Positions 9,389 to 46,204 of a stretch of 58,410 bases of DNA are shown here, in pieces. Origin of the DNA: Candidatus Cloacimonadales bacterium (GTDB taxonomy: Bacteria > Cloacimonadota > Cloacimonadia > Cloacimonadales > JAFGVF01); the NCBI GenBank assembly GCA_041672585.1, contig JBAYZI010000002.1, forward strand, positions 1-58,410, in the 5' to 3' direction. A program made the translations under genes and the position numbers. Each line of letters starts with the position of its first letter. Within the stretch, counting starts at the first letter, position 1. The notes under the pieces were generated by a model, which worked only from the letters and a program-made list of their open reading frames with translations, was not told where the DNA came from and did no database searches.

Positions 9389-9400
9389 TTATATATTCTC

Positions 9401-10432: not shown

Positions 10433-10441
10433 GATTTCTCC

Positions 10442-15481: not shown

Positions 15482-15483
15482 AA

Positions 15484-27940: not shown

Positions 27941-27955
27941 AACTAAAATATTTCC

Positions 27956-28861: not shown

Positions 28862-28875
28862 ATATTATTTCCTCT

Positions 28876-31800: not shown

Positions 31801-31974
31801 GAGTACTTTATCCGGAAGTTCTTTCTCTCCACTTCGTGTTACTCTAGGGAATTTATCTGAAGGCATTGCATTATTATATGATACCGGTGCTTTCATCATG
31901 GGATGAGGTACTACCTCGGCTACTAAAGTTATTGCTAATAGAAGCAATAAGGCTATAGTTGAAACTTTCTTCAT
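28876..31974 (-). CDS. M6 (immune inhibitor A)-like secreted protein lacking the HExxH zinc site, with T9SS-type C-terminal sorting domain
   Basis: 1032 aa with a signal peptide. M6-typical blocks are present (FHAGAGQE...LLWS and GIGYWGIMGSGAWN...LGW). At the position of HEFGHxLGLPD the sequence reads SGFGYALGLPN (aa 242-252). The C-terminal 88 aa read IYPNPFNSTI...IYNVAGKKI...SGVYIARL. Confidence 0.7.
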   Translation of the reverse strand: MKKVSTIALLLLLAITLVAEVVPHPMMKAPVSYNNAMPSDKFPRVTRSGEKELPDKVLAFMVQFADVKIVAEPTYPDSLVHNQEFFNRYMLQLTDYLYDASHQQYLLNYQFYPDIITLDKNMAYYGSDTNTRQRIAEFAQEVVQKSDADIDFNEFDTFIIFHAGAGQETDTKKIRPELLWSTFLSRRNLQLGIDPENDDYQGIPADGTFVTDFVIVPEYQWQDYFPQDGSMAPYGNLGVLASGFGYALGLPNLSDNVSENGTSAGIGYWGIMGSGAWNADGYIPALPCAWSRYYLGWETPVEVTADTYNLQVDFLLDTSPTAPQVYKINMSEKEYYLIENRAQNPDNSTLNGQASFTFPLLPEDEQVYYPPFAGQWEMVPKFDFMTNRLKGCEWDFYLPGYSGFGYLPVDGSGLLIWHIDEFVIEENFNPDIGLSRVNGDASHKGVDLKEADGIQHLDANPNLSIYSYGSPEDAYRAPLNTYLGFDTFNGLLHLPSSESHYGGVPFEIFDISEANNQMSFNVVFKWNLSADYQGINRFSALSVNMKADDHSRVNRIILPSGNKLTIFENDEITNEFTLDYNISKQYSYDELAEQLLIPTLRVAPTALSVLNYYDGTQVATAFSQFGHAWTSPVIIHKQEDDNSYKYYCAMNNLTDFHGVIKILDSNLVNLVDIPLDDKMKSNLIYADQLMVITKGDGYFLNLIDEEDATVTKLPLEIPADSTITNTLFFDFSPQHEAFELVVQGDYGFYVFTGTDYSFVNYIESSVKSKAVPSLVDFDKNGTWDLVLGYKDGVKIITYNGELLDNNKFTVASTPNDSLIVYGGAFAVDYDSSGDYKFAGTFSRNRTAMWDSRGRTLPGFPTANNNNGRSYPCLHLENNELYLYTTVDKANINRVFLQTVNADYNLDNILTNWYTEYNSYHRNAVEENKTLPNILKTDDIFVSGEVYIYPNPFNSTINRSLTLRAMVSRSCEAKLEIYNVAGKKIYTETKDLDPYLGNLNKFNIPYTKMESGVYIARLKAEGKYKELKFALEK

Positions 31975-32157
31975 CTTTTCTCCTGTTTATTTCTCTTTAA
32001 CGGGACTTCCCCTTTAAAAACAACTCTTACCGGGTATCAATTATTCAATACTTATCTCCTCTAATCACATTGTTTTTCCCCTTAAAGCTAACAATACTAA
32101 GAGGGGGAAATTAGTCAATTATTTTCTGCATCAAATTGCTTTATTTATAGGTTGAAG

Positions 32158-33000
32158 TTAGAATGCCTCTTTATGAGTAGCAAGAAAGTTTAATCTCTCT
32201 AAATTAAAGTGGTGCATCTTTTCCACCCAAAACTTATTTCCGGCAGTTTTGGGATAGCAATCAGTGAGCTGAATTTCAGACTTCTCACAGGCAAGATGTC
32301 CTATTTTAGAATGGAGTAGCATAATATTATGCAGATAGATAAGGTCATTGCCGATTTTGTTATAATCACAAGTGTTACCATGCCCCGGGATAATTAATGG
32401 AGTTTTCTTTTTATGCAAATCCAACAGTTCCAGATAGAGTTTATTAGGATCGCCCCAGTAGAAGTAGGGGATAGCAATTCGTTCATCATCAGAGTTGAGA
32501 ACATTATCACCTGTCCAATAAATATCAAATTCATGCGAATAGATTCTGGTTGAATCATAAGAGTGTCCCGGAGCGTGCGTAATGGTCAGATCAAATTCAG
32601 GCAGATGCAGAGATTTAGAGAAGGTTATATGGGGTTTTCTAAGTAGTTTCTTATTAACTATATTTGGTCTGTGTGGTGAAATAATATTTTTCTCACTTTC
32701 AATAGTATGTAAATAAGACTCATGAGCAATTATCGTAGGTTTATAGCAATCAAAGAATCTGTTTCCATAACAATGGTCGCTATGCCAATGGGTATTTATG
32801 ATATATTTGACAGGCTTCAGCTTAGCTTCGCAGAACTCTAATAACTCTTTAGAATCTTTAGGCAACAGTAAAGTATCAATGATGAGTAGCGATGTTTCAT
32901 TCTCAATTACAGTTGCATTTAGCAATGAAGCTTTAGTTTGAAGTTGAGTAATTTGCTTATTAATAGGGAATATTTTATTCATTTTTACTTCCTGAACCAT
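32158..33000 (-). CDS. Metallo-beta-lactamase fold hydrolase
   Basis: 280 aa with the HWHSDH (HxHxDH) motif plus downstream His/Asp ligand blocks (HAPGHS, IPGHG). An alternative start is at 32982. Confidence 0.8.
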   Translation of the reverse strand: MVQEVKMNKIFPINKQITQLQTKASLLNATVIENETSLLIIDTLLLPKDSKELLEFCEAKLKPVKYIINTHWHSDHCYGNRFFDCYKPTIIAHESYLHTIESEKNIISPHRPNIVNKKLLRKPHITFSKSLHLPEFDLTITHAPGHSYDSTRIYSHEFDIYWTGDNVLNSDDERIAIPYFYWGDPNKLYLELLDLHKKKTPLIIPGHGNTCDYNKIGNDLIYLHNIMLLHSKIGHLACEKSEIQLTDCYPKTAGNKFWVEKMHHFNLERLNFLATHKEAF

Positions 33001-33601
33001 AATGAATTAGGTCAATAATCTTATGAACCATAGCACGTAGGTCGAACTCTTTTCCTTTAAGAATCCATTGAGTTAAGACAAAGTCCATAGCGCCAATTAC
33101 AGTAAGCGAAAAGGCATCAGCCGAAACTTCTCTGAATTTGTCTTCGCCCACTCCTTCTAGAAATATCTCTTTCATATATTCCCGATATTCATCAAAGATA
33201 GAGAAGTTAGGGTATTTAGTATAATAATTCTTGATCTGTCTGATATCTTCCACTATAAATTTAGCAATGTGTGGATTTTGGGTAAAGATAATTGCGTGGA
33301 TATCAAAGAACTTCAAGATTTTAGCTCTGACATCCGGTTCTTGAATGGATATCCTCTTTACCTCTAACAACTTATTGTGCAGAGTTTCGGTGAGAGCATT
33401 CATCATCAAATCTTCTTTAGAAGTGAAATATGTATAAATAGTGCCGTCTGCGACTCCTGCCTTGGTTGCTATATCTTTCATCTTAGTGTTCGCATAACCG
33501 TTTTCAGAGAGTAATTTAATGGCAACGCTAATTATGGTCTCTCGCTTTTTTTTCTTCTTTTCTACTATATGACTACTTGGTTTTGTTACTTTTTGTTGCA
33601 T
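32975..33601 (-). CDS. TetR family transcriptional regulator
   Basis: 208 aa with an HTH (TKMKDIATKAGVADGTIYTYFTSKEDL). It overlaps the MBL-fold gene start, so the two probably form a two-gene operon. Confidence 0.85.
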   Translation of the reverse strand: MQQKVTKPSSHIVEKKKKKRETIISVAIKLLSENGYANTKMKDIATKAGVADGTIYTYFTSKEDLMMNALTETLHNKLLEVKRISIQEPDVRAKILKFFDIHAIIFTQNPHIAKFIVEDIRQIKNYYTKYPNFSIFDEYREYMKEIFLEGVGEDKFREVSADAFSLTVIGAMDFVLTQWILKGKEFDLRAMVHKIIDLIHYGSGSKNE

Positions 33602-33619
33602 TATAATATCCTAAGGGGT

Positions 33620-33649
33620 AAAATAAAAAATAGGGGCTAACGCCCCTAT
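33620..33649 (-). terminator. Hairpin plus T-tract (minus strand) just upstream of the TetR gene
   Basis: The minus strand reads ataggggcgttagcccctat followed by tttttatttt. It may insulate the tetR-MBL unit from read-through from the C25 gene. Confidence 0.5.
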
Positions 33650-33920
33650 CAACGCAGTACACAGTTACTGCTTAGAAAATCCGTAAATCAGCTTACAATT
33701 TTGGATGATATAGAGGCTGGATGAACTAATTATTTTAATCTCTATACTTAAGTACTAAAAGGTTGTAGTAAACAATTACTGTCAAGTTAAATATCGCACC
33801 ATTACAATTTAAATTAAAAAAACAAAGGTTTATTGAGTTTAAGGGGAATAATACAAGGGTATATAATGAATTGAATAAGAGACTTTTATCAGCAACTTAG
33901 ATCTCTTTTACTCCAGTAGT

Positions 33921-33957
33921 TGATAAAATAAAAGAGCCCCGATTTACCGAGGCTCTC
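33921..33957 (-). terminator. Rho-independent terminator candidate of the C25 protease gene
   Basis: The minus strand reads agagcctcg-gtaaat-cggggctct (8 bp with 1 mismatch) followed by tttattttat, about 45 nt after the stop at 34000. Confidence 0.6.
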
Positions 33958-33999
33958 TTCAATTATTCATTATTAATTGTTAATTGTTAATTAACAATC

Positions 34000-36900
34000 C
34001 TATTTCATAAGAATCATCTTGGCGGTTTTAGAATATTGTTCAGTGGACATTCTATAAAAATAAACACCTGACGCAACATTCTGACCATTATCATCTTTAC
34101 CATTCCACACTATATTATGATTACCTGCAGCCTTGAACTCTTTAAGGAGAGTCTTGACTTTCTGACCTAAAAGGTTATACACTAAAATCTCAACATTCCC
34201 GGCACTCTTCATACCGAAAGATATGTTAGTTTCAGGGTTAAAAGGATTAGGATAATTACCATTTAGAGAAGTAATTGCCGGCACCACAGAATCATCATCA
34301 TTAGATACAGGTTGGGCAATACCTGACAAGTAGATTATTATCTCACTTAGTCCAGGGTTGTCAGTAACAATAAGTGCTTCAGAACTATAATTTTGAGCTC
34401 TATTAGGAGCAAATAGGAGAGTATATTCTAGATCTTGTCCTGCATCTAAGGCGAAGCTCATGGTATTAAGTAACTCGTCGTTAGTACCTACTAGGTAGAA
34501 AGGAGCTGTGATTGTTATTTGAGCAATACCGGAACCATCACCTGTATTAGTGAAAGTCATTGGTAACTCAGCCATTTCACCGACTAACACAGTACCAAAA
34601 TCGAATTCTGTATTATCTACAGCTATGCTTGGTGTGCCCTGAACTACCTCGGCAAAAGCAGGGAAAGTTACATAATCAAGGTAGAAGCAGTCATCATTAG
34701 CACTTGCCATCCAATCTTTTGTGTATATCCATTTGAAGGTATTAGTGCCGGGACTAACAGTATAAGCGTAATTAACCCAACCGGTATCACCACTTAAATT
34801 AAGCCACACCTGATTATTGATATAGAACTTTACAAAGTCGTAATTGTTTTCAGTTGAGACATGCATCCAGAAGCTTACTTCTCCGACTTCAGTTGATTCG
34901 TATGAAATCTCAAGAGTAGTGGATGTATTATGACCGATTGTAGCTGATTTTAAGCTATAATTGCCTTCATAAGCATGGTCTGAGAAAGTATAATTATCAT
35001 TAGTTTCCCAACCAAAAATTTCTAAGGATTGAGATTCAAAATCTTCGACTGATAAACCAACAAAGGTTGAATAGTTTGTAGTTTCAGTAAAGCTACCGTA
35101 GAAGGCATTAATATGAAATTCTAACTCTTGACCTGTAGGTATTTGACTACTTAGAATTACTTCAAAGGAGACCTCTTCATTTTCGCCTGACTGGATGTCT
35201 GCAATTTGTTGGTTACCTGTATTAGAAACAACAAGACCGACCGGATAACTAATTACCAAATTAACTAATTGGGCTTCATAACCGCCGGTATTAGTTACAG
35301 GAATTGTTAAGAGGAAAGTCTCTCCGGCATCCATTCTCTGATTCCCATTGCCAAGAACTTCAGTTGCTACAATTGCACCAAGAGTAATCTTAGGAGCTTT
35401 GTTGATTAAGAAAATAGGATAGCTCCATGAGTTGGCTCCGTCATCTGCTGTGATATTAGCAGTGAAAGGAATCATATAGTTATTAGCTATATTAGTAGGA
35501 ATGTTTATAGAAAAAGCATCTTCAGGTAAGACGATCACTTCATCTGCAGCAATATTGGCTACAGTTTCTTGACTATCTGAAATCATCACACCCGGTTCTG
35601 TAGAAGCGAGAGTAATAGTTAAATCTGATGATGTTTCAACACCCACATTCTTAATATTAAAGGTAAAGTTACCATTGTATCCGATATGGGTTGTATTATT
35701 AGGTATTGCATCAATAACAACAAAAGAACCTTCAGCAGGAGTGAGCATAATAGGCTCAACAACTGTAACTTTGTTAAAACCGGAAACAGTTAAGGTTAAG
35801 TCTTCAGGATTAAGAGGCATGTTCTCTAAAGTTAAATTAGCGTTTCCTGTAATATCTGTGTAGGCACTGCCAAGCAATTCACCATTATAAGAAACAGCAA
35901 CCAATGAACCTTCTTCTCCAGTACTAACGCTATATTCATCTGTTCCAATGAAAATAATACCTGTATGGTTTAGAGTAAGTTCTTCAGGGATATCAGTTCT
36001 GATTTGTAAAGAAGCATCACCAAAGATGTGCCAGGTTTTGAACATATTAACACCATCGGAACTATAATTATCCATCATATTACATGAACCACTATAAAAT
36101 AAAGCTCCCAGAACTGAGGTCTGTTCAGCAACAAGCAGGTCAATTATTTCGTCTTGTCCTCTCATTGGGGAAGCCCAAGATTGATTAATGGTTGAAGCAT
36201 AAATAGAAATTGCCCCGGTAGGGTTGCCATTACTGGTTGCTCTTAGCCAAGCTTCAGCAAAGCAGGTCATGTTTACGAAGTTACCGTTAACACAAGCAAC
36301 TGAAACAATGAAAGGTAATTTGCCTACATTGGTTAAGTTGTTTACATGGCTGTTAGAGAATCCGGTAGTTGACCAAGATGTGTTAGAACCATGTCCTACA
36401 TAATTAATAAAGCCTCTTCCTTCTTCGTTAAGAGAAGTGGCTATGTGAGTTGTACTTGCGCTTGGGGCGTAGGTTTGGTCAACAGTTTCATAATTATAAG
36501 CAAGCAGTTTATTTCTGATTATGTTCATGTGTTGAATATCGGTTTCGCCATTATCACCCTGACTTCCACCTTCCGAAGAAGCAATACCGATAGCTTTATT
36601 TATGAAAGTAGCAGAGCTATTTAAATCTCTTTCATAGTTGATAGTTCTTTCTACTTGAGTAAGAAGTTCGTTAGTGTTCTCAGCTGAGAATCTTCCGATA
36701 AAGATATCAGGATAGTTATCATTTCCTGCTACTAAAGAGTACATAGGGTCAGCGCCACCACCACCTGATGAAAGTGTCGCTACTTGAGGAGCATCACCGG
36801 CTATTTGCACAAAAGCAAAGTCGTCGTGAGTGTTGTAGTAATTTTGGATAAAAGTTTTGATGCTGTTACCATTGTTACCAATAGTTGCTACATCGACCAT

Positions 36901-37686
36901 TTCAGTTTTGATACCTTTCTGGTTCTTCCAATCAACATATGGCTGCATTGTGGAAAAGTAGTTTTGAGGAGCGATAACTAAGATCGAACCTTGATCAATA
37001 AGTGGTTCGTATCTATTAGTTTCATAGTTTAAAAAGTGGTTTTTATAGATCTGTTCAAAAGCATTAACACTTTTTACACTTCTGGTTAAAATGTTTTCTC
37101 CGGTTTCAAAACTATTGGCAACAGCAACTTTGATAGAGGTATAAACTCTCAAAACATTAGTTACCGGATTGTATTGGAACGGATTAAAACTTACAGCCAC
37201 ACCACGATGATTTCTCATAATGTAAGCAGAACCAAGAGTTGTAATTTCACCTGGGTAAAAGTTATCTTGGTTATAAACATCACTAAATTCATAAGGAACA
37301 GTTGCAGGATCAACATCTCTGTAGAGAATTCCCTTAGAAGGGGCTACAGCCATCTCAAAATCTACATAAGCAGAATCAATAAGACGCATTACAGGTTTAG
37401 ATCTACCATCAATAATGATACTTCTTGTCAGAGTAGGAACTTCAGGAGCTCCCTTCTCATAGGTTTCTGCTGCTTTTTCTAATCTAATATGATTAAACGT
37501 TTCACCATCTATAATCACTTGGTCTCTATTAAAACTAGCTAAAGTCATTTCTATAACAGTTTCATTGCTGTTAGATTCTATTAAGTTAACACCATTGTTA
37601 TTCGAGCTATTAACATAGATTGTTTCAGCATTTAGTCCGATAATAATAGTTAACATTAATACAACTATTAATAAGCCTTTCTTCAT
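34000..37686 (-). CDS. Gingipain-like C25 cysteine peptidase with T9SS-type C-terminal sorting domain
   Basis: 1228 aa with a signal peptide and an N-terminal propeptide-like region. The catalytic His block is YVGHGSNTSW and the Cys block is IVSVACVNGNF, as in the C25 family. Ig-like/CARDB-like middle domains are present. The C-terminal 86 aa read NYPNPFNPETNISF...VYNLLGQKV...SGVYFYRM. Confidence 0.8.
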   Translation of the reverse strand: MKKGLLIVVLMLTIIIGLNAETIYVNSSNNNGVNLIESNSNETVIEMTLASFNRDQVIIDGETFNHIRLEKAAETYEKGAPEVPTLTRSIIIDGRSKPVMRLIDSAYVDFEMAVAPSKGILYRDVDPATVPYEFSDVYNQDNFYPGEITTLGSAYIMRNHRGVAVSFNPFQYNPVTNVLRVYTSIKVAVANSFETGENILTRSVKSVNAFEQIYKNHFLNYETNRYEPLIDQGSILVIAPQNYFSTMQPYVDWKNQKGIKTEMVDVATIGNNGNSIKTFIQNYYNTHDDFAFVQIAGDAPQVATLSSGGGGADPMYSLVAGNDNYPDIFIGRFSAENTNELLTQVERTINYERDLNSSATFINKAIGIASSEGGSQGDNGETDIQHMNIIRNKLLAYNYETVDQTYAPSASTTHIATSLNEEGRGFINYVGHGSNTSWSTTGFSNSHVNNLTNVGKLPFIVSVACVNGNFVNMTCFAEAWLRATSNGNPTGAISIYASTINQSWASPMRGQDEIIDLLVAEQTSVLGALFYSGSCNMMDNYSSDGVNMFKTWHIFGDASLQIRTDIPEELTLNHTGIIFIGTDEYSVSTGEEGSLVAVSYNGELLGSAYTDITGNANLTLENMPLNPEDLTLTVSGFNKVTVVEPIMLTPAEGSFVVIDAIPNNTTHIGYNGNFTFNIKNVGVETSSDLTITLASTEPGVMISDSQETVANIAADEVIVLPEDAFSINIPTNIANNYMIPFTANITADDGANSWSYPIFLINKAPKITLGAIVATEVLGNGNQRMDAGETFLLTIPVTNTGGYEAQLVNLVISYPVGLVVSNTGNQQIADIQSGENEEVSFEVILSSQIPTGQELEFHINAFYGSFTETTNYSTFVGLSVEDFESQSLEIFGWETNDNYTFSDHAYEGNYSLKSATIGHNTSTTLEISYESTEVGEVSFWMHVSTENNYDFVKFYINNQVWLNLSGDTGWVNYAYTVSPGTNTFKWIYTKDWMASANDDCFYLDYVTFPAFAEVVQGTPSIAVDNTEFDFGTVLVGEMAELPMTFTNTGDGSGIAQITITAPFYLVGTNDELLNTMSFALDAGQDLEYTLLFAPNRAQNYSSEALIVTDNPGLSEIIIYLSGIAQPVSNDDDSVVPAITSLNGNYPNPFNPETNISFGMKSAGNVEILVYNLLGQKVKTLLKEFKAAGNHNIVWNGKDDNGQNVASGVYFYRMSTEQYSKTAKMILMK

Positions 37687-37781
37687 TCTTCCTCCATTTA
37701 TCTTGAATCACATTTTTTTATCTATAATATAATATATGCAATATTTATACCAAAGGCAAAATAATTAATAATAATTGATGA

Positions 37782-37824
37782 GTTGAATGGTTGATTTGTT
37801 TAATTGTTTAATTGTTTAATCGAT
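37782..37824 (+). repeat. AT-rich word element gttgaatggttgat-(ttgtttaa)x3-tcgat
   Basis: It has an 8-bp unit repeated exactly three times in tandem (37796-37819). The reverse complement of the whole element recurs at 50868-50902 with one unit fewer. Confidence 0.8.
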
Positions 37825-38042
37825 GGCGAGAATGGCTTCGTAGGCTCTTCAAATCTCCTACTCTCTTTGTATTATTAATTACCTTTGTGTTTTTGTGGTA
37901 TTTTGTGTTTTAGTGTTAAAATCCCTAATTCCGGAAATTAAATCCAAATTAAAAAGAATTATTTCTCAACTGCTAACCCACTGTAAATCAGCCATTAATC
38001 GTCAATGAGGAATCTTAAAAGTAAAAATAATTAAAAAAAGAT

Positions 38043-38076
38043 TTGACACGAAACAGTAATCAGGTATTGTAGTACC
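38043..38076 (+). promoter_or_regulatory. Candidate promoter (TTGACA-16 nt-TATTGT) overlapped by the 16-bp operator candidate CAGGTATTGTAGTACC, upstream of the Rrf2 gene
   Basis: TTGACA lies at 38043-38048. The motif caggtattgtagtacc lies at 38061-38076 and covers the -10 region. An identical 16-mer recurs at 38528-38543. Confidence 0.5.
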
Positions 38077-38109
38077 AGAATCAATGAATAAAAGATAAAA
38101 GAGGAAAAG

Positions 38110-38511
38110 ATGAGTAAGATATTGAATTTATCGGAAGCTTCATACTTAGCATTACACGGCTTAGTGCATATTGCATCTAAAACTCCCGATAGGATAAGTG
38201 TGAAAGAGATAGCAAGTGTTTTACATGCATCAGAAGCTCATCTATCCAAGATATTTCAAAAGTTAACCCGCGTAGGGATAGTTAATTCAATAAGAGGACC
38301 ACAGGGCGGATTTGAATTAAGCCGCTCTCCTAAGCACGTCTCTTTCTTAGAAATAATAGAGATATTTGAAGGGGAGATCGAGGTTACAGGTTGTCCTTTT
38401 GGTAAGAAGAATTGTGTTTTTAATAAGTGTATTATAGATAAAGAAGTTGGCGAAGCGACTAAAGTAATTTATGATAGATTCAAAAATATGTATCTTTCAG
38501 ACTTTCTTTAG
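38110..38511 (+). CDS. Rrf2 family transcriptional regulator with three-Cys Fe-S ligand motif (NsrR/IscR-like)
   Basis: 133 aa. The N-terminal winged HTH is (SVKEIASVLHASEAHLSKIFQKLTRVGIVNSIRGPQGGFEL). The Cys motif is CPFGKKNCVFNKC (C-x6-C-x4-C). Confidence 0.9.
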   Translation: MSKILNLSEASYLALHGLVHIASKTPDRISVKEIASVLHASEAHLSKIFQKLTRVGIVNSIRGPQGGFELSRSPKHVSFLEIIEIFEGEIEVTGCPFGKKNCVFNKCIIDKEVGEATKVIYDRFKNMYLSDFL

Positions 38512-38527
38512 TTTTTTTAAAATTTAA

Positions 38528-38557
38528 CAGGTATTGTAGTACCTAAATACTTATAAT
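38528..38557 (+). promoter_or_regulatory. Second copy of the 16-bp operator candidate followed by a perfect TATAAT, upstream of the cupin-to-hcp gene string
   Basis: caggtattgtagtacc lies at 38528-38543, TATAAT at 38552-38557, and GGAG plus ATG at 38570. The operator occupies the -35 position. Confidence 0.5.
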
Positions 38558-38569
38558 GGAGCAGATATT

Positions 38570-38911
38570 ATGAAGATTTCAAATTACAAAGGTAATGAAG
38601 AGTACAAGACAGCTCATGGCGTTGATGTGAAACAGGTGTATAACACAGAATTTGCGCAAATTAATCATATTCTCTTACAACCGGGCGAGGCCTTAAAGCC
38701 TCATATAACTCCGGTAGATGCTCTTTTCTATATTTTAGAAGGCACACCCACCATCTTAATTGGCGAAGAGAGAGTCCAAGTCAAGCAAGATGATGTTATC
38801 GAATCCCCTAAAGAGATAGTCCATTGTGTTTATAACGAGTCCGACAAGGTCGTTAGATTTTTAGTATCCAAATTACCCAGACCGGTAACAGCTTCTAAAT
38901 TCATCAAATAG
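38570..38911 (+). CDS. Cupin domain protein
   Basis: 113 aa, the size of a single beta-barrel. It shows the cupin-like pattern (LLQPGEALKPHITPVDALFYILEG ... VHCVYN). Confidence 0.65.
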   Translation: MKISNYKGNEEYKTAHGVDVKQVYNTEFAQINHILLQPGEALKPHITPVDALFYILEGTPTILIGEERVQVKQDDVIESPKEIVHCVYNESDKVVRFLVSKLPRPVTASKFIK

Positions 38912-38924
38912 GTAGGAAACAGTC

Positions 38925-40148
38925 ATGCAATATTTTAATAGCGAAGATTCTCTCTTATCAATAGTAGAGAGATATCCTGAAACAGAACCGGTTTTTACTT
39001 CTAACGGCTTCCCTCAGATGGATGACAAAGCTAAGAGAGAACAGTTTGCCAAGTCGATTAGCCTCAAGATGGCGTTGACCCTAAAGCAGATAGATTTTGA
39101 GACTTTTAGTAATCTTTTAGTCGATGCAATTGAGAGAGATGACAGTGAAGTTGATGCTTCTTTGAATAGCAAAGCATTAAGTGGAAGCGAGAAAGCTATA
39201 AAAGTTATTGGTGCTTTGCCATGCCCTGTCAGGATTCCGCTATTAGAAAAGTTTAATTCTTTTACCAAACAGCTTAAAGAAGAGTTGGGAACCGAAATAG
39301 AGTCTGAATTAAAAGCAGCGTCTATGGGTTTAGATTGGGTAGAAGAGCATGTTAAAGAAGTAACAGATGCTCAGAAGCTCCCTGATATCTTTATCTCAGC
39401 CGGATTTGATATGTTTTTTGATAAAGCGATGTTTGGTAAGTTCAAGGAGCAGGGCGTCTTTGCAGATTACTCTCCGATTCAGAACTACAACCATCTCTTT
39501 GCTGACATAGATCTCAAAGATCCCAAGCAGCATTTCTCTCTACTTGGCGTGGTGCCTGCAGTCTTCTTAATTAACACTCAAGAGCTTGGTGATTTACCTT
39601 TGCCTACATCATGGGCAGATATTATGAAGCCTGAGTTTGAGAAAAAAGTCTCTTTACCTGTTGGTGATTTCGATCTTTTCAATGCTATTCTTCTCTCTAT
39701 TTATAAGAAGTATGGCGATGATGGGGTGGAGAAGTTAGGCAAATCACTCTTGGAATCTCTTCATCCTTCCCAAATGGTGAAGAGTGCTAAGAAGCGTGAT
39801 AACAGGCCGATAGTAACCATTATGCCCTATTTCTTTACTAAGATGGTGAAGGAAGGCGGGACAATGAAAGCTGTTTGGCCTTCCGATGGTGCAATTATTA
39901 GTCCTATCTTTATGCTTACTAAAGCAGATAAACAAGCTGAACTTCAGCCAATAGTAGATTTCTTCGCTTCTCAACAAGTAGGGGAAATCTTGGCTCATAG
40001 CGGACTTTTCCCTAGTGTTCATCCTAATGTGGATAATAGAATAGCAGAGAATAATAAGTTTATGTGGTTAGGTTGGGATTATATCTATTCTCATGATATC
40101 TCAGCAACCATCAAACATTGTGAACAGCTTTTTCAAAGCTCAATTTAA
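38925..40148 (+). CDS. Cytoplasmic fusion protein: DUF1858-like N-terminal domain plus periplasmic-binding-protein-like (ABC SBP fold) body, no signal peptide
   Basis: 407 aa. The N-terminal ~70 aa (LLSIVERYPETEPVF...) resemble the hybrid-cluster-protein-associated DUF1858 domain. The remainder resembles type-2 solute-binding proteins. The N terminus is hydrophilic, so the protein is not exported. Confidence 0.45.
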   Translation: MQYFNSEDSLLSIVERYPETEPVFTSNGFPQMDDKAKREQFAKSISLKMALTLKQIDFETFSNLLVDAIERDDSEVDASLNSKALSGSEKAIKVIGALPCPVRIPLLEKFNSFTKQLKEELGTEIESELKAASMGLDWVEEHVKEVTDAQKLPDIFISAGFDMFFDKAMFGKFKEQGVFADYSPIQNYNHLFADIDLKDPKQHFSLLGVVPAVFLINTQELGDLPLPTSWADIMKPEFEKKVSLPVGDFDLFNAILLSIYKKYGDDGVEKLGKSLLESLHPSQMVKSAKKRDNRPIVTIMPYFFTKMVKEGGTMKAVWPSDGAIISPIFMLTKADKQAELQPIVDFFASQQVGEILAHSGLFPSVHPNVDNRIAENNKFMWLGWDYIYSHDISATIKHCEQLFQSSI

Positions 40149-40157
40149 GGAGGAAGA

Positions 40158-40850
40158 ATGAATTTAATAACAGTTTCCGGACCGCCCTCATCAGGCAAGA
40201 CTTCTGTGATTCTCAAGACCATAGAATCTCTGCATAAAAGAAATCTCAAAGTGGCAGTCGCTAAGTTTGATTGTCTCTACACTGATGACGATGTTCTGTA
40301 TAGAAACGCAGGTATTCCTGTGAAAAAAGGGCTTTCCGGTGCTTTATGTCCGGACCACTATTTTGTCAGTAATGTAGAAGAGATAACCAAATGGGGTTAT
40401 GAAGCCGGAATGGATATTTTGATAAGTGAATCTGCAGGTTTGTGCAACCGCTGTTCCCCTTATATTAAGGGAATCAAGGCTATTTGTGTTATTGATAATC
40501 TCAGTGGGATTAACACTCCCAAGAAGATAGGACCTATGCTAAAATCTGCTGATATCGTGGTGATTACTAAGGGCGATATTGTCTCTCAAGCCGAGCGTGA
40601 AGTCTTTGCTTCCCGCGTGAATAGTGTCAATCCCAAGGCGATAATTATGCATATTAACGGTCTTACCGGACAAGGTAGTTTTGAGTTATCCACCCTAATT
40701 TATGATGAAAAAGATAATATAAGTTCTTTAAAAGGTCGGGAATTACGCTTCCCTATGCCGTCAGCCCTCTGTTCTTACTGTCTTGGTGAAACCAGAATTG
40801 GTGAGAGTTATCAGATGGGAAATGTGCGTAAGATTAATTTAGAGGATTAG
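40158..40850 (+). CDS. HypB/UreG-like (G3E family) P-loop GTPase, putative metallochaperone
   Basis: 230 aa. Walker A is GPPSSGKTS. The ESAGLCNRCSP block aligns with HypB ENVGNLVCPA. An NKxD-like ITKGD is present, plus a C-terminal CSYC motif. Confidence 0.6.
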   Translation: MNLITVSGPPSSGKTSVILKTIESLHKRNLKVAVAKFDCLYTDDDVLYRNAGIPVKKGLSGALCPDHYFVSNVEEITKWGYEAGMDILISESAGLCNRCSPYIKGIKAICVIDNLSGINTPKKIGPMLKSADIVVITKGDIVSQAEREVFASRVNSVNPKAIIMHINGLTGQGSFELSTLIYDEKDNISSLKGRELRFPMPSALCSYCLGETRIGESYQMGNVRKINLED

Positions 40851-40853
40851 AAG

Positions 40854-41870
40854 ATGTTAATTAATATTAAAACAGTGCCAAACTTATATATAGAAGATTT
40901 AATTCAAGAATATCCGTTTTTAGATTCCTTTTTTGCTACTAATAATGTAGATTTTGCCGGAAAAGGTAATATCTCTCTGGCTACTTATTTTGACCTTTTA
41001 GGTGAAGAACATAGAGAAGATATGGCGATTGATCCTGACCTCTTTTATCAGCAACTTGTGGAATATATTCAACAAATGATGGCGTTTCTGGGTAAAGATG
41101 CAGAGGTAGTGGAGATGGTTACCATTCTTCCCGGCACTAACAAGAGTGGGGAAGTGGAATGCTTCGAGAGATTAGATATTCATAAAGGCGAAATAGTAAG
41201 CATCGTAGGACCAACCGGCTCAGGCAAGAGCAGACTTTTAGGTGATATCGAATGGGTAGCTCAGGCTGATACGCCAACCAGTAGGACTATTCTCATCAAT
41301 AATAGCAAGCCTGATGTTAAGTGGAGATTCTCTACTTCTGATAAGCTGGTTGCGCAATTATCCCAAAATATGAACTTCGTGATGGATTTAACAGTTCATC
41401 AATTTGTAGAGCTTCATGCCGAGAGCAGATTAGTCGAGAATAAAACTGATATTATCGAAAAGATTATCAACAAAGCTAATGATCTTGCCGGCGAGAAGTT
41501 TTCTCCGCAAACCCCGATTACCAGCTTAAGTGGTGGTCAATCCAGGGCTTTAATGATTGCTGACACTGCTATTCTGAGCAAATCTCCCATTATTCTGATT
41601 GATGAAATAGAAAATGCCGGAATAGACAGAAAGCGTGCCTTAAATTTACTTCTCTCAGAGAATAAAATAGTACTAATGGCAACCCACGATCCGATTCTGG
41701 CTTTAATGGCTGATAAAAGAATTATAATCAAGAACGGTGGGATTGTTAAGGTGATAGAAACTACTCGTGAAGAGCGTCAAATCTTAACCACTTTAGAAGA
41801 ATTAGATAACACTATTCTTGGCTACAGAACTAAGTTAAGAAATGGCGAAAAACTAATAGAGAATTTTTAG
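40854..41870 (+). CDS. ABC-type ATPase with an N-terminal DUF1858-like extension; no cognate permease in the cluster
   Basis: 338 aa. Walker A is GPTGSGKSRL, the signature is LSGGQSRAL, Walker B is ILIDEIENAG and the H-loop is MATHD. The N-terminal ~80 aa include LIQEYPFLDSFF, similar to the N terminus of the 407-aa protein. Confidence 0.7.
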   Translation: MLINIKTVPNLYIEDLIQEYPFLDSFFATNNVDFAGKGNISLATYFDLLGEEHREDMAIDPDLFYQQLVEYIQQMMAFLGKDAEVVEMVTILPGTNKSGEVECFERLDIHKGEIVSIVGPTGSGKSRLLGDIEWVAQADTPTSRTILINNSKPDVKWRFSTSDKLVAQLSQNMNFVMDLTVHQFVELHAESRLVENKTDIIEKIINKANDLAGEKFSPQTPITSLSGGQSRALMIADTAILSKSPIILIDEIENAGIDRKRALNLLLSENKIVLMATHDPILALMADKRIIIKNGGIVKVIETTREERQILTTLEELDNTILGYRTKLRNGEKLIENF

Positions 41871-41898
41871 TTGCAAATGAATAATAAGGAGATATATT

Positions 41899-42141
41899 AT
41901 GCATGAAGGCTGTAACAGTAACTTCAAGAATGGACAGGAAGTAGTTGATAAAGTCCGACAAATGGGCTTTTCCGAACAGTATATGCCAATGCCGTTGGAT
42001 ATAATTTGCGAAGAGTGTGGGGATAAATTTGAGATGGAAACATTCGAAAGCGTCTGCCCTAAATGTAATATGGTTTATGGGGTAACACCTTGCCATGCCT
42101 TTGATTCTGAGAATGTCAAGGCTGCCGGAATTAAATATTAA
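41899..42141 (+). CDS. Small zinc-ribbon protein
   Basis: 80 aa with CEEC-x15-CPKC, typical of a four-Cys zinc ribbon. It lies in the same-strand string between the ABC ATPase and hcp. Confidence 0.5.
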   Translation: MHEGCNSNFKNGQEVVDKVRQMGFSEQYMPMPLDIICEECGDKFEMETFESVCPKCNMVYGVTPCHAFDSENVKAAGIKY

Positions 42142-42262
42142 AGAGAATAATAATATAAGAATGATAACTTCAAAATCAAAATTAATTACCACTGAATTAG
42201 TCGGGATTAATAACGAATTAATAACACTTTAAATATTATCAATAATGATGAATAGGAGAAAA

Positions 42263-43867
42263 ATGATGAGTATGTTTTGTTACCAATGTCAAGAAACAAT
42301 GCAGAATATTGGCTGTAGATTTAATAAGGGTGCTTGTGGAAAACCTGCAAAAACAGCAGCTTTACAAGATGCTTTAGTCTATGCTTTAAAAGGCTTAGCT
42401 ATTGCTTCAGAAAAAAATTATAAGAAAGAAAATGGCTTATTTATAGCCCAAAGTTTATTTGCTACTATCACCAATGCAAACTGGGATGATGCCAAATTCG
42501 TAGAATTCATCAAAGAAGCTTTAAAAAGAAGAGATGCTCTTAAATGCACTTGTACTTGTGATGAAATCACTTGGACAGGCAAAACTGAAGATGATTTTGT
42601 TAAAATTGGCGAAAAACATGGCGTTCTTTCAACCAAAAATGAAGATACTCGTTCATTAAGAGAACTCCTTGTTTATGGTCTAAAAGGTATTGCCGCCTAT
42701 GCAGAACATGCAGCTGTGCTCGGACAAGAGAATGACGATATATACAAATTCTTAATGGAAGCTCTTGCTTCTACAACTAAAGACCTTTCTCTCGACGAAA
42801 TGGTTGGCTTAGTCTTAAAAGCCGGCGAAAACGCTGTAGCAGCTATGGCTCTTCTTGATGGAGCAAACACTTCAACTTATGGTAACCCTGAAATCACAGA
42901 AGTTAACATCGGTGTTGGCAAAAATCCTGGCATCCTTATCTCCGGTCATGACTTAAGAGATATGGAACAACTTCTTGAACAAACAGTTGGCACAGGTGTT
43001 GATGTTTATACTCACTCCGAAATGCTTCCTGCAAACTACTACCCAGCTTTCAAAAAGTATGACCACTTTATAGGAAACTACGGTAATGCTTGGTGGAAAC
43101 AAGATACAGAATTCATAACTTTTAACGGTCCTATCTTAATGACTACTAACTGTATCACTCCTGTAAAAGAAGAATATGCCAAGAGAATCTTTACCACAGG
43201 TATGGCTGGATATCCTAACGTTCCTCATATTGAAGCAGTTGATGGCAAAAAAGATTTCTCTAAGATTATTGAATTAGCTAAAACATGTAAAGCTCCTATC
43301 GAAATCGAAAAAGGCTCAATAGTTGGTGGATTCGCTCATAACCAAGTATTCGCTCTTGCCGATAAAGTGGTCGCTGCTGTTAAATCAGGCGCAATTAAAA
43401 GATTCGTCGTTATGGCAGGTTGCGATGGCAGACACACAACCCGTAGCTACTTTACCGAAGTTGCAGAACAGTTACCAAAAGATACTGTTATCTTAACAGC
43501 CGGTTGTGCTAAATATCGCTATAACAAGCTTCAACTTGGCGATATCGGTGGAATCCCACGCGTCTTAGATGCTGGTCAATGTAACGATTCCTACTCTTTA
43601 GCTCTTATTGCTCTCAAACTTCAAGAAGTATTTGAGCTTAATGATATTAATGATCTACCAATCTCATTTGATATTGCTTGGTACGAACAAAAAGCTGTGG
43701 CAGTTCTCCTTGCCTTGTTATTCCTCGGTGTAAAAGGCATCCGTTTAGGACCTACACTCCCAGCGTTCTTATCTCCAAATGTAGCTAAGGTTTTAGTGGA
43801 AAACTTTAACATTAAAGCTGTTGGTGAAGTTAAAGCTGATATCGAAGCTATGATGGCTGGTAATTAA
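42263..43867 (+). CDS. hcp: Hybrid cluster protein / hydroxylamine reductase
   Basis: The N-terminal Cys motif is MFCYQCQET...GC...GACGK, and the conserved Hcp blocks ISGHDL, NYGNAWW, MAGCDG and GQCND are present. The ORF track starts at 42245. I prefer 42263, which follows AGGAG at 42254-42258; 42266 and 42272 are also possible. Confidence 0.95.
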
Positions 43868-43924
43868 TTAACTAACAAAACTAGACTTGCGAAGTAACTT
43901 AAATATTCGCACTAAATAATAAGT

Positions 43925-43960
43925 AAAGGGCAGAATTTAACTCTGCCCTTTCTTCTTTAT
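43925..43960 (+). terminator. Rho-independent terminator of hcp
   Basis: aaagggcag-aatttaact-ctgcccttt is followed by cttctttat, about 60 nt after the hcp stop. Confidence 0.7.
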
Positions 43961-44187
43961 AGCCACTTTAGGGGAACCTTCTTAGGTAAATCGATTAGTT
44001 AACGAAAACACTACGAGATAGCTACTTATGACCCACTGGAACACGACTTTGTAGGGATGTTTCTTGTGGGGGATTTCTTGTTTTAGCCACGGGTTTCACG
44101 GATAAATTGCCTGCTGAACTGTCGAAATGAAGAATCGTTGAATTGTTGAATCGATAAAGACAACCAACTAAAACTGATTTCGCAAGC

Positions 44188-44268
44188 TCTTCCACTGGGA
44201 TTGCGGACACTCTGTCCGTATTAAATCTCTCCCTTTCAGAGGGATAGAGAAACTTTGCTTCGCAAAGA
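44188..44268 (+). repeat. Copy of an ~80-bp hairpin-module repeat (cactgggattgcggac...gtccgtattaaatct...agggatag...ttgcttcgcaaag)
   Basis: It aligns along its length with 57701-57783. The internal stems are preserved with different loop sequences. Confidence 0.85.
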
Positions 44269-44551
44269 AATAAAAAGATTCATATCAACAAATGTCTCTT
44301 TATTTCCACATTTCCATTTCGAATGTAGCTACAAAGATACAGCTCCTACGGAGCAAAGAAAATAAGAAGAGAAGGCTTTAAGTCTAAACTACGAAAAACC
44401 ACGAAAACACAAAGAAAAAGAGCTTTCACACGAAGTAATACAAATAATTACGAAAGAAACGCTGAGAACACAAAAAGAAGATTCTGATTATTATGAAAGA
44501 GTTGCAATACTTCTTAAATCCATAAAGAGTGATGGGTAAGCATACAATTTA

Positions 44552-46204
44552 TTAAACGTCTATCGTAAAAATCTCATCCTTAAATATCAGTGCTTGCTTA
44601 TCATTATCTAAAATATCCTGAGAGAATTGTTCAGTAGAAGCCACATAAAAAGCACAAATAGTCAAAGCTTTAACTTTTGCTCCTAATAGATTCTCCCAAA
44701 ATTGAAACTTATCGCTTCTCAAATCAGAGAAAACTGCTTTCCTAAAAACAACAATTTCTTCCCGTTGCAAGAAAGCCGGTAGATTATCTTTGCGCGTGAA
44801 AGTAAGCCAATCCCAGCTGAGATAATCATCTAACACAGCTTTCTCTAACTGAGGTAAATCGCTTAATAAAAACCTTCTAAAGGTAGAGAAAATAGCCTGC
44901 CAATTCTTCTTATCCAATGACTCTTCACTTCCCAAGAAATCAACAAAGCTAATAAACAGGTCAACAGGTCGTGGGTAATAACTTCTTAATAATTTGAGAG
45001 TATGCGTGAAGCGTGAAGCATTGAAAATCAGTTCAAAGGTATCTTCTAAAACATAGAAATACTTCATATCAGCGAAAGAAACCCATTTAGTTTGTAGCAC
45101 CTGATAAGGCGGATCCACATCATAAATTAATTCATACTCTTCTGTTTTCTCGTGCATTTCTGTGCCGGGAAGTACTTTCAGAAAACCCAACTGAATAACA
45201 TCAGGCTCTAATAAAAGCAGATCATTAAGAGAATTGAGAAAAGAAGCTTTATCCTCATAAGGCAAACCGATAATTAAATCAAGGTGAGTATGAATATTCT
45301 TAAAAGTCAGAAGCTTTTGTAAATTATCTTTAAATGCCCCGAATTGATGTGTACGATGAATTTCTCTTAATGTCTGTTCATTAGTAGATTGAATGCCAAT
45401 CTCAAGCTGAATTCGCTCTTGGGGAGTCTCTTGGAAAATAGTAAAATCTTCTTCACTTAATAATCCAGGATGCACTTCAAAATGAAACTTGGTCTTGGTC
45501 TCCAAAGAATTTATATAGTTCCAAACAGCACGCGAAACTTTTCTATCAGCATTAAAACTTCTATCTACAAATTTAATTATGTTAGATTCTGATACCAGCA
45601 TGAAGTCCAATTCCTCTTTTATCTGCTCAAAACTCTTAAACTCCAATTGCTGATCCATGCGTGAGGAAATACAAAATGAACAGTTAAACGGACAACCCCG
45701 CGAGGATTCATAATAGATATACCTGTTTTCTAAATTGGCAAAATCAGTTTTGTGATAAGGAAGTGGAATTTGCGAGAATGGTTTATTTTTCAGCTGAATT
45801 ACCTTCTCTTGTAAGTCAAACTTATTCAAACATAAATGTCTCCAACCTGCTTCACCACCACCGACTATTATGTAATCCGGTGCATTAGCTAAGCTTAACC
45901 AATAACGGTGATTATAGCCTGCTTCGGGTCCACCTAATACCACCTTAATTTCGGGGTATAATCTCTTAATCGAGCTTACAATAAATTTCACTAAATCCCT
46001 ATTCCAAATATAGACAGAGATTGCTAAAATATCAGGTTCGCTCTCTAGTATCGACGACAGTATTTTAAACTTATCTTGATTTATGTTCTCTTCTAAAATG
46101 ACAGTTTTATAATCTAAATCAATTATTGATTCTCGAATATATAAAAGAGCTAAATTAGAATGAGTAAATCTTGCATTTATTCCTAAAAGTGTTATGTTTT
46201 TCAT
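44552..46204 (-). CDS. B12-binding-domain radical SAM protein (DUF4080-type C terminus)
   Basis: 550 aa. The N-terminal region resembles a Rossmann-like B12-binding fold. The radical SAM motif is SSRGCPFNCSFC. A long C-terminal helical extension follows. Confidence 0.75.
   Translation of the reverse strand: MKNITLLGINARFTHSNLALLYIRESIIDLDYKTVILEENINQDKFKILSSILESEPDILAISVYIWNRDLVKFIVSSIKRLYPEIKVVLGGPEAGYNHRYWLSLANAPDYIIVGGGEAGWRHLCLNKFDLQEKVIQLKNKPFSQIPLPYHKTDFANLENRYIYYESSRGCPFNCSFCISSRMDQQLEFKSFEQIKEELDFMLVSESNIIKFVDRSFNADRKVSRAVWNYINSLETKTKFHFEVHPGLLSEEDFTIFQETPQERIQLEIGIQSTNEQTLREIHRTHQFGAFKDNLQKLLTFKNIHTHLDLIIGLPYEDKASFLNSLNDLLLLEPDVIQLGFLKVLPGTEMHEKTEEYELIYDVDPPYQVLQTKWVSFADMKYFYVLEDTFELIFNASRFTHTLKLLRSYYPRPVDLFISFVDFLGSEESLDKKNWQAIFSTFRRFLLSDLPQLEKAVLDDYLSWDWLTFTRKDNLPAFLQREEIVVFRKAVFSDLRSDKFQFWENLLGAKVKALTICAFYVASTEQFSQDILDNDKQALIFKDEIFTIDV

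Follow-up and report, generated by a model that had tools for sequence, protein, structure and literature searches.

A conserved four-gene module with a G3E-class GTPase, a soluble ABC ATPase and a cytoplasmic binding protein adjoins hcp in Cloacimonadota and may serve metal centres

We analyzed an operon that ends in hcp, the gene of a hybrid cluster protein (Hcp), at positions 38,043 to 43,867 of a stretch of 58,410 nucleotides from Candidatus Cloacimonadales bacterium (GenBank assembly GCA_041672585.1, contig JBAYZI010000002.1), hereafter called the window. Seven co-directional open reading frames (ORFs) lie on the + strand: rrf2, a cupin gene, genes for proteins of 407, 230, 338 and 80 aa, and hcp (Table 1). 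The closest relatives of the locus are metagenome-assembled genomes (MAGs) of Candidatus Cloacimonadales. An earlier note, made from the sequence alone, had described a same-strand string of six genes preceded by an Rrf2 gene, and the ORF table bears out this description together with its spacing, since the genes from cupin to hcp are separated by 13, 9, 3, 28 and 103 nt. The last gap, put at about 100–120 nt in the note, becomes approximately 124 nt when hcp is started at 42266, a start that is favoured by an AGGAGA at 42254–42259 and by close homologues of 533 aa. The intergenic gaps of the operon, that between the 80-aa gene and hcp among them, contain no terminator-like site. A scan of the operon against Rfam returned neither a riboswitch nor any other RNA, and an inverted-repeat scan of the hcp leader yielded weak AT-rich repeats and nothing more. 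Profile searches of the ORFs with Pfam and NCBIfam recovered Rrf2, Cupin_2, DUF1858, SBP_bac_6, cobW/HypB/UreG, ABC_tran and Prismane, in agreement with the families named beforehand. The two motifs reported for the 230-aa protein (GPPSSGKTS and ESAGLCNRCSP) are present in the window translations, as are GPTGSGKS, LSGGQ, ILIDE, THD, ERYP and QEYP.

Table 1. Features of the operon and their positions in the window (PWM, position weight matrix; SBP, substrate-binding protein; AF2, AlphaFold2; NBD, nucleotide-binding domain).
Feature	Position	Strand	Evidence or remark
Sigma-70-like promoter of rrf2, TTGACA-16-TATTGT	38043..38070	+	10/12 matches
Rrf2 operator 1, palindrome TAATCAGGTATTGTAGTACCAGAATC	38057..38082	.	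overlaps -10 box; PWM 27.3 bits
Rrf2-family regulator, 133 aa	38110..38511	+	Pfam Rrf2 91.2 bits; three conserved Cys
Rrf2 operator 2, TTAACAGGTATTGTAGTACCTAAATA, in rrf2-cupin gap	38524..38549	.	PWM 26.9 bits
Small cupin, 113 aa, lineage-specific accessory gene	38570..38911	+	Pfam Cupin_2
Cytoplasmic binding protein, 407 aa: DUF1858 + FbpA-like cluster-D SBP fold	38925..40148	+	Pfam, alignment, AF2, Foldseek
G3E-class GTPase (HypB/UreG-like), 230 aa	40158..40850	+	invariant CPDH, GLCNRC, C-terminal CSYC
Soluble ABC ATPase, 338 aa	40854..41870	+	N-terminal helical (remote DUF1858-like) domain + MacB/BceA-type NBD
Zinc-ribbon protein (HypA-like), 80 aa	41899..42141	+	N-terminal MHEGC, two Cys pairs, PCH motif
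Class-I hybrid cluster protein (hydroxylamine/NO reductase)	42245..43867	+	NCBIfam NF003658; likely true start 42266
Intrinsic terminator hairpin followed by T-run, operon end	43925..43951	+	strong hairpin

A scan with a degenerate pattern, in which each species was represented by one genome, detected relatives of the 407-aa protein in 363 of approximately 185,000 species genomes, and the best 80 loci from these 363 species were compared by tblastn with the seven window proteins. The order binding protein (407 aa), GTPase (230 aa), ABC ATPase (338 aa) and zinc-ribbon protein (80 aa) is kept in 80/80 loci as far as the contigs reach. These loci belong to at least six phyla (Cloacimonadota, Spirochaetota, Fermentibacterota, Bacteroidota with Labilibaculum and Marinifilaceae, Clostridia, Aminicenantes, and Marinimicrobia), and identity to the window proteins amounts to 77–93% for the GTPase, 55–81% for the binding protein, approximately 60–84% for the ABC ATPase and 55–82% for the zinc ribbon. 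Since the same gene order recurs in 80 loci of at least six phyla, the arrangement is far beyond chance. The cupin gene is present in 20/21 Cloacimonadota loci, in 1/30 from Spirochaetota, and in none from Bacteroidota, Fermentibacterota, Aminicenantes or Clostridia; rrf2 is found in 21/21 Cloacimonadota and 23/30 Spirochaetota loci and almost never in other lineages. The conserved unit is formed by the four genes from binding protein to zinc ribbon (hereafter the core) and not by six.

The presence of an adjacent hcp gene was scored in the 60 loci with enough flanking sequence (informative loci). In Cloacimonadota hcp directly follows the core in 19/19 loci, and the same holds for 2/3 unassigned MAGs and for 3/23 Spirochaetota loci, which occupy two separate positions in the tree of binding protein plus GTPase. 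It does so in none of the loci from Bacteroidota (0/5), Fermentibacterota (0/7), Aminicenantes (0/2) and Clostridia (0/1), that is, in 0/15 from these four phyla together. The total is therefore 24/60. Judged by the condition for refutation that the earlier note set itself, a lack of conserved linkage to hcp in other genomes, its proposal of a module dedicated to Hcp fails in the strong form, although in Cloacimonadota the linkage is complete. Where hcp follows, it is separated from the zinc-ribbon gene by a median of 109 nt, and by at most 44 nt in seven loci, and no terminator-like hairpin was detected in any of these gaps.

These counts bear on the proposal of the earlier note that the cassette is dedicated to Hcp, with four accessory proteins that build or rebuild its 4Fe-2S-2O hybrid cluster. 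On the one hand, the invariable linkage in Cloacimonadota and its presence in Spirochaetota at two tree positions would fit such a maturase, as would core–hcp gaps down to 15–44 nt that lack terminators, the retention of the linkage in two rearranged loci (L010 and L011), and the membership of Hcp in the carbon monoxide dehydrogenase (CODH) superfamily, whose cluster needs NTPase chaperones (PMC6006190, PMC6344411). On the other hand, adjacent hcp is missing in 36/60 informative loci, including every locus of four phyla, and related trios of GTPase, ABC ATPase and binding protein occur in contexts unrelated to hcp, among them nitrogenase-like genes and importers. Hcp is also widespread, E. coli and Desulfovibrio included, whereas the core was found in only 363 species genomes. 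Finally, the Hcp of the window is by its sequence an ordinary class-I enzyme, which scores 810 bits with NF003658 (Prismane / hydroxylamine reductase; cut-off 367), aligns end to end with D. vulgaris Hcp (1E2U; 818 bits, residues 3–532) and has the N-terminal pattern CxxC-x8-C-x6-C. We therefore regard a dedicated Hcp maturase as improbable. Neither the operon nor the Pfam-annotated ORFs of at least 150 aa in the window include an Hcr-like reductase, as the earlier note had observed; this is unremarkable because class-I enzymes normally have no Hcr partner, the Hcp-Hcr pair being class II. The CooC/CooT/CooJ system likewise uses an NTPase to insert metal into a member of the prismane/CODH superfamily, and its genes lie beside that of the enzyme. 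However, CooC is a MinD-type ATPase rather than a G3E GTPase, neither CooT nor CooJ is found here, and in place of the CODH C-cluster the target would be an all-iron hybrid cluster, with a linkage that is lineage-restricted.

Clustering of all flank ORFs from the 80 loci revealed no other recurrent neighbour of the core that could represent an alternative client. The genes found sporadically in these flanks include RpiB/HPr, methyltransferase, HAD, PtsP, OsmC-like and ferric-reductase-like genes. In two Cloacimonadota loci (L007, at 11356–11796, and L014) an OsmC-like gene (peroxiredoxin family) separates hcp from the zinc-ribbon gene, and a second cupin gene occupies this place in L036. A class-I S-adenosylmethionine (SAM) methyltransferase of approximately 246 aa is encoded directly before the core in seven Fermentibacterota loci that lack rrf2 (L024, L030, L033, L037, L039, L041, and L042). 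In Spirochaeta, the zinc-ribbon gene is followed by a gene for a ferric-reductase-like membrane flavoprotein, judged by eye to be of the FRE/NOX type (L056, at 9135–10490, and L057).

The 407-aa protein matches DUF1858 (PF08984) at residues 7–61 with 41.1 bits (cut-off 32.2) and SBP_bac_6 with 278 bits, and DUF1858 is precomputed in nearly all of its homologues. Its AF2 model, with a predicted local distance difference test (pLDDT) score of 81.7, shows a helical DUF1858 domain connected by a disordered linker to a cluster-D binding-protein fold, for which Foldseek gave FbpA, FutA, AfuA and P5PA as the closest folds (11–16% identity). Among the invariant residues of the family are C100, where beta-strand 1 ends, H280 and C399, along with several Asp, Arg and Lys. 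Neither a signal peptide nor a lipobox is evident, the N-terminus being the folded DUF1858 domain, although no dedicated signal-peptide predictor was run; the description of a binding-protein-like protein that lacks a signal peptide therefore holds. Neither a signal peptide nor a permease was found in the 80 close loci or in the trio genes of 12 distant loci.

Public databases annotate the 407-aa protein as 'ABC-type Fe3+ transport system substrate-binding protein', and this name together with the FbpA-like fold would be expected of an ordinary Fe3+-type ABC importer with its permease encoded elsewhere. We consider this highly improbable, because the folded DUF1858 domain takes the place of a signal peptide or lipobox, no permease is encoded in 80/80 loci, the NBD is of the MacB/BceA exporter/mechanotransmission type rather than FbpC/PotA, and the ABC ATPase is in obligate synteny, and in some cases fused, with a G3E GTPase. 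The FbpABC and FutABC importers share with this locus the cluster-D fold (FbpA, FutA, AfuA) and an adjacent ABC ATPase gene, but they differ in these same export, permease and NBD features and by the low identity given above. The Tyr-Tyr/His/Glu ligand set of FbpA is not evident in the 407-aa protein, which has invariant Cys and His instead.

DUF1858 is reportedly related to the ScdA_N domain of RIC/YtfE, and the hemerythrin-like di-iron domain of RIC/YtfE had no Pfam match in any of the seven operon proteins. A connection of DUF1858 to N-oxide biology is supported independently by the literature: a DUF1858 gene of Bradyrhizobium, located between nnrR and hemN2 and a few genes from nirK, is strongly NnrR-dependent (PMC6710368), and DrpB of Thermus nitrate respiration is a DUF1858 protein (PMC6282519).

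The 230-aa GTPase matches cobW/HypB/UreG (PF02492) with 47.8 bits (cut-off 20.7). Its GPPSSGKT, ESAG and TKGD are invariant and correspond to Walker A, the ExxG Walker B and the [NT]KxD guanine motif. The best relatives with solved structures are UreG (E 6e-5) and M. jannaschii HypB (MjHypB). C64 of the invariant CPDH aligns with the cysteine of UreG CPH and HypB CH, and C96/C99 (ESAGLCNRC) flank the second MjHypB Cys by 1–2 positions in a 22-bit alignment. The protein falls below the equivalog cut-offs of HypB (TIGR00073; 48 bits vs 121.2) and of UreG (28.7 bits vs 204.2, with CPDH in place of CPH), and its sequence contains no CxCC, as would be needed for the GCxCC motif of COG0523/CobW. Pfam gave no match on the C-terminal tail. 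An exhaustive search of 1.84 billion representatives retrieved only 476 proteins at E<=1e-3, so that the clade is small and distinct; relatives down to 23–40% identity keep all five Cys (CPDH, GLCxRC, and the C-terminal CxxC).

The 80-aa protein starts with MHEGC, 8 nt downstream of an AAGGAG ribosome-binding site. M1, H2, G4 and C5 are invariant in the family; C37/C40 and C53/C56 form invariant pairs 12 residues apart, P64-C65 is invariant, and H66 nearly so. In several Cloacimonadales relatives the first pair is CxC (KCECG) instead of the CxxC of the window (CEECG). These features resemble HypA, which is known for an MHE nickel site and a zinc ribbon. A profile of the 80-aa family retrieved generic ribbons from PDB and no HypA structure; matches to TALE repeats in PDB were rejected as repeat-summing artefacts in which no stretch passes alone. 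The label 'HypA-like' as used here is an analogy and not a demonstrated homology. The public annotations in this part of the operon are 'GTP-binding protein' for the GTPase, 'ABC transporter' for the ABC protein, and 'hypothetical' or an automatic 'HypA' (UniRef) for the 80-aa protein.

The GTPase and the 80-aa protein raise the question of a paralogous HypA/HypB-like route that delivers nickel to an enzyme such as a hydrogenase, CODH or a Ni-cupin. It would explain why the best named GTPase relatives are HypB and UreG, why the 80-aa protein combines an MH[DE] N-terminus with a Zn ribbon like HypA and has relatives auto-annotated as such in UniRef, and why a cupin is co-encoded in Cloacimonadota. 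Nevertheless, hydrogenase, urease, CODH and hyp genes were found neither in the 58-kb window nor in the flanks of the 80 loci, the GTPase remains far from the HypB and UreG equivalogs in a sharply separate clade, and the family profile did not demonstrate HypA membership of the 80-aa protein. This makes nickel delivery decidedly unlikely. The HypA/HypB and UreG/UreE pairs do resemble the window in that a G3E GTPase with Cys/His residues at the switch regions, putative metal ligands in the window protein, and a small MH[DE] CxxC...CxxC protein are encoded in one operon. In contrast to them, the window GTPase has additional CNRC and CSYC motifs and lacks the N-terminal CxxCGC of HypB, HypA is longer than the 80-aa protein, there is no Ni enzyme in the vicinity, and the module has two further obligatory partners, an ABC ATPase and a binding protein.

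In the 338-aa ABC protein all catalytic motifs are invariant, and so is a segment at residues 156–179. For its ABC domain the closest folds are those of BceA, MacB and 5xu1, all of them type VII NBDs and not of the importer type. No cognate permease gene is present in the operon or conserved beside the core in 80/80 loci, so the earlier description of a complete ATPase (Walker A, LSGGQ, Walker B, H-loop) that lacks a permease gene proved correct. The first approximately 80 residues are modelled as a helical domain (pLDDT 82–90) with the secondary-structure pattern of DUF1858. BLASTP produced no alignment between the N-terminal domains of the 407-aa and ABC proteins, Pfam gave no match on the isolated window domain, and no DUF1858 is precomputed in 120 ABC homologues. 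An hhalign match was weak but in consistent register (probability 13%, E 0.002), and weak DUF1858 matches were obtained in 6/24 ABC relatives (best E 0.023), with no other family matched more than twice. The earlier claim that both proteins start with similar DUF1858-like domains can thus be upheld for the 407-aa protein, while the ABC protein is only weakly DUF1858-like.

Natural GTPase–ABC fusion proteins exist (P0290, 509 aa; P0291, 613 aa) and provide Rosetta-stone evidence that the GTPase and the ABC ATPase act together. The fusions, the MacB/BceA-type NBD and the lack of signal peptide and permease agree with the view of the earlier note that this is a cytoplasmic, NTP-driven system and not a transporter. 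SufBC2D is another case of a soluble ABC ATPase that drives a conformational change in cytoplasmic metal-centre partners, and suf operons are controlled by the Fe-S-sensing Rrf2 regulator IscR, just as an Rrf2 protein is encoded here. However, no Suf family occurs among the Pfam matches or the best 25 of 142 NCBIfam matches of the ABC protein, and flank clustering of the 80 loci revealed no SufB/D-like neighbour; the partner here has an SBP fold, the NBD is closest to MacB/BceA and not to SufC, and there is an extra GTPase.

The Rrf2-family regulator clearly exceeds the PF02082 cut-off of 30 bits (Table 1), and its three-Cys motif CP-x5-C-x4-C (C-x6-C-x4-C) is kept in 48 homologues. It scores below every NCBIfam equivalog cut-off for NsrR (41.7 vs 182), IscR (57 vs 207.6), RirA (49.3 vs 193) and CymR. 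Alignment of the regions upstream of rrf2 in 48 related loci uncovered a conserved palindromic operator with the consensus TATTTAGGTATTnnnnTACCTAAATA. The palindrome lies 10–14 nt downstream of a TTGACA box and hence overlaps the -10 hexamer, and in most related loci the box is at equal distance from the operator. A symmetrised PWM was used to scan the window (threshold >=12 bits) and the related loci (>=16 bits). The window contains exactly two sites, one before rrf2 and one in the rrf2–cupin gap, and 1.04 Mb of related loci contain 66 compared with 0 in shuffled sequence. All 66 are situated before rrf2, cupin or the binding-protein gene (three overlap the called start). They lie upstream of rrf2 in 43 loci; apart from the one in the window, second sites precede the cupin or binding-protein gene in 20 loci, and these 20 are independent of the PWM training set. 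No operator site was found in loci that lack rrf2.

In L010 the core comes first and is followed by an rrf2-hcp pair, with operators before the cupin gene and before rrf2; hcp is therefore a member of the Rrf2 regulon in its own right there. L011 has the same gene order, and the site before cupin alone passes the threshold, with none before rrf2. Metagenomes were also scanned for hcp starts immediately preceded by the operator, with a pattern that catches only about one in seven real operators; the one match was due to chance and was not hcp. This insensitive test returned no operator directly before a stand-alone hcp, a further point against a maturase made for Hcp. Because the regulator falls outside all equivalog families and keeps its three Cys, it is probably a local, autoregulated repressor that is predicted to carry an Fe-S cluster on them. 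The enterobacterial NsrR regulon (hcp-hcr, ytfE/RIC, hmp) similarly places hcp under a three-Cys Rrf2 protein and has, in RIC/YtfE, a reported link to DUF1858. Here, by contrast, the regulator is no NsrR equivalog, the operator differs, a hemerythrin di-iron domain and Hcr are absent, and the accessory machine has no counterpart in that regulon.

Beyond the 80 loci, the long form of the trio, which contains DUF1858, occurs without the zinc-ribbon gene in Geovibrio, beside a catalase and a Fur-family gene, and in Negativicutes. On two independent Negativicutes contigs (L084:6338-9735 and L085:576-3973) a gene for a 67-aa TOBE protein (molbindin type) is located directly upstream of the long-form trio, and a PsrABC-like molybdoenzyme and a ModE-like regulator are encoded nearby. 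This hints that the ligand in Negativicutes could be an oxyanion (Mo/W). A short form consists of the GTPase, an ABC ATPase of approximately 250–280 aa and an SBP_bac_6 protein of approximately 280–320 aa, with no DUF1858. The short binding proteins begin at beta-strand 1 and have no signal peptide; most of them keep the Cys at the end of that strand and all have a WPxDG-like motif. In 8/9 loci the short trio lies beside complete import systems for metals or chelates (FecCD/Peripla_BP_2/ABC, NMT1/BPD_transp/ABC, TonB-dependent receptors, and ZnuA). A UbiE-type methyltransferase gene is often present too, and single loci add NifH with two NifD/K homologues, a DtxR-type repressor, or B12-binding/URO-D genes. 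Seen together, the module looks layered: a universal cytoplasmic trio, to which DUF1858, the zinc ribbon, Rrf2, and in Cloacimonadota cupin and hcp are added.

Several short-form loci deserve separate description. In L086:1510-10226 (GCA_031548365.1 JAVBRD010000019.1) the trio is placed between a divergent CRP/FNR-type regulator gene and a FecCD/Peripla_BP_2/ABC importer, after which come NifH and two NifD/K-like (Oxidored_nitro) genes, so a nitrogenase-like enzyme may be linked to the short trio in this locus. In L081:1-16717 (Desulfosarcina ovata AP021879.1) a short trio is accompanied by a second cobW-like gene and by the beginning of a DUF1858-SBP gene of the long form, and therefore long and short forms coexist in one organism; TonB receptor, DUF364/DUF4213 and methyltransferase genes are also present. 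UbiE-type methyltransferase genes follow the short trio in the Desulfobacterota loci L081, L089 and L091; with the methyltransferase gene before the core in Fermentibacterota, this association is a recurrent one.

These contexts introduce a further candidate explanation, according to which the trio is a cytoplasmic processor of imported chelates or metallocofactors (siderophore-, corrinoid- or tetrapyrrole-like cargo) that extracts, exchanges or hands over the metal, with hcp as a co-regulated neighbour. The proximity of short trios to complete chelate importers, TonB receptors, UbiE-type methyltransferases, B12-binding/URO-D genes and NifH/NifDK homologues is what such a role would lead one to expect, and the short binding proteins are cytoplasmic and have the beta1-end Cys and the WPxDG motif in common with the window protein. 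For the long variant, however, no importer is nearby in 80 loci, its DUF1858, Zn ribbon and Rrf2 point to stress and Fe-S themes, and the contexts of the short variant may not carry over. We judge a processor of imported chelates to be unlikely for the window, though worth keeping in mind.

We give an even chance to the reading that the window holds a stress operon, derepressed through Rrf2, in which Hcp, an enzyme that detoxifies nitric oxide (NO) and hydroxylamine, is co-induced, along with a cupin, with a general machine for the re-metallation or repair of metal centres. The basis of this reading is observed: the gene content, the synteny, the operators, the fusions, and the absence of any component for export or in the membrane. 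The metal-centre theme follows from the G3E GTPase, its HypA-like partner, the FbpA-like fold, the regulators of Fe-S or metal type, and the importer neighbourhoods of relatives. The core is probably a general module for handling metal centres and not a dedicated Hcp maturase; iron is favoured as the metal, with nickel, an oxyanion and a chelate also in play.

From these observations we infer the metal, the clients, the signal that is sensed and the order of hand-over, as follows. Rrf2 would hold an Fe-S cluster on its three Cys and sit on two palindromic operators that overlap promoters, and the operon would be derepressed once the cluster is lost or nitrosylated (by NO, oxidants or a shortage of Fe-S). 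A metal species, in all likelihood iron, would then be bound in the cleft of the binding protein, where C100, H280 and acidic residues are candidate ligands. When ATP closes the ABC dimer, which paired DUF1858-type domains instead of a permease would link to the binding protein, the metal may be forced out. It would pass to a GTPase dimer, with its CPDH and CxxC sites, and to the HypA-like partner, which would together place it under GTP control in damaged or newly made metalloproteins. In Cloacimonadota, Hcp would be a co-induced partner and possibly one client, not the defining target.

A bolder version is more tentative. In it, the GTPase-ABC-SBP trio would be a new class of soluble ABC machine, in which a permease-less ABC ATPase works on a cytoplasmic SBP fold that serves as substrate holder and is docked, in the long form, via paired DUF1858-type domains, and the metal or cluster is passed to the Cys-rich G3E GTPase for insertion into clients, the Hcp hybrid cluster being one of these in Cloacimonadota under an NO- or Fe-S-sensing Rrf2.

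Several points weigh against a repair machine of this kind. The SBP fold of the 407-aa protein also covers binders of sugar phosphates, polyamines, pyridoxal phosphate and oxyanions, and in Negativicutes the trio is flanked by a TOBE gene and genes of Mo enzymes, so a ligand other than iron is conceivable. The 80-aa protein cannot be demonstrated to be a homologue of HypA, as PF01155 scores 19.1 bits against a cut-off of 28.9 and matches the ribbon only. The N-terminal domain of the ABC protein is only weakly DUF1858-like, and a contact between binding protein and ATPase via DUF1858 domains is speculation. Lastly, the Rrf2 protein is not assignable to NsrR, IscR or RirA.

The rest of the 58-kb window is an ordinary Cloacimonadota-like chromosome, with peptidases sorted by the type IX secretion system, an RND efflux system, glyQ, Trk and ribBA. 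Just upstream of the operon and on the opposite strand (23771–37686) is a run of very large genes for secreted peptidases with type IX secretion sorting domains, comprising an S8 subtilase of 1389 aa, an M6-like peptidase of 1032 aa and a C25 gingipain-like peptidase of 1228 aa. The AT-rich non-coding spacer of approximately 420 nt between the C25 peptidase gene and rrf2 (37687–38042) contains the short tandem motif TTAATTGTTTAATTGTTTAATCG at about 37800–37822. On the other side, a gene for a B12-binding radical SAM protein with DUF4080 (44552–46204, - strand) is convergent with hcp, and the approximately 680 nt of non-coding sequence between them (43868–44551) contain several short hairpins and have no Rfam match. 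Two adjacent DNA methyltransferase genes (12734–16383, - strand) encode an N6_Mtase-type protein of 915 aa and an N6_N4_Mtase of 299 aa, which suggests a restriction-modification or orphan methylase island.

HypB, UreG, CobW and CooC are known NTPase metallochaperones, but to our knowledge no machine has been described in which a G3E GTPase is combined with a cytoplasmic binding protein and an ABC ATPase that lacks a membrane part. We found no description of this module in the full-text literature searched, where papers on the genomic context of CODH and HCP deal with other systems, of the permease-containing NitT/TauT type, and the module appears to be undescribed so far. The findings correct two misleading annotations, 'Fe3+ ABC transporter substrate-binding protein' and 'HypA'. 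The long form, present in at least 363 species genomes, strongly conserved across anaerobic phyla and equipped with its own regulator and operator, can be tested in cultured strains of Labilibaculum, Marinifilum, Ancylomarina and Oceanispirochaeta. The chance that the module represents a new kind of soluble ABC machine is a real one. It could show a new use of the ABC and binding-protein folds, and how anaerobes re-metallate or repair their metal centres under nitrosative or oxidative stress.

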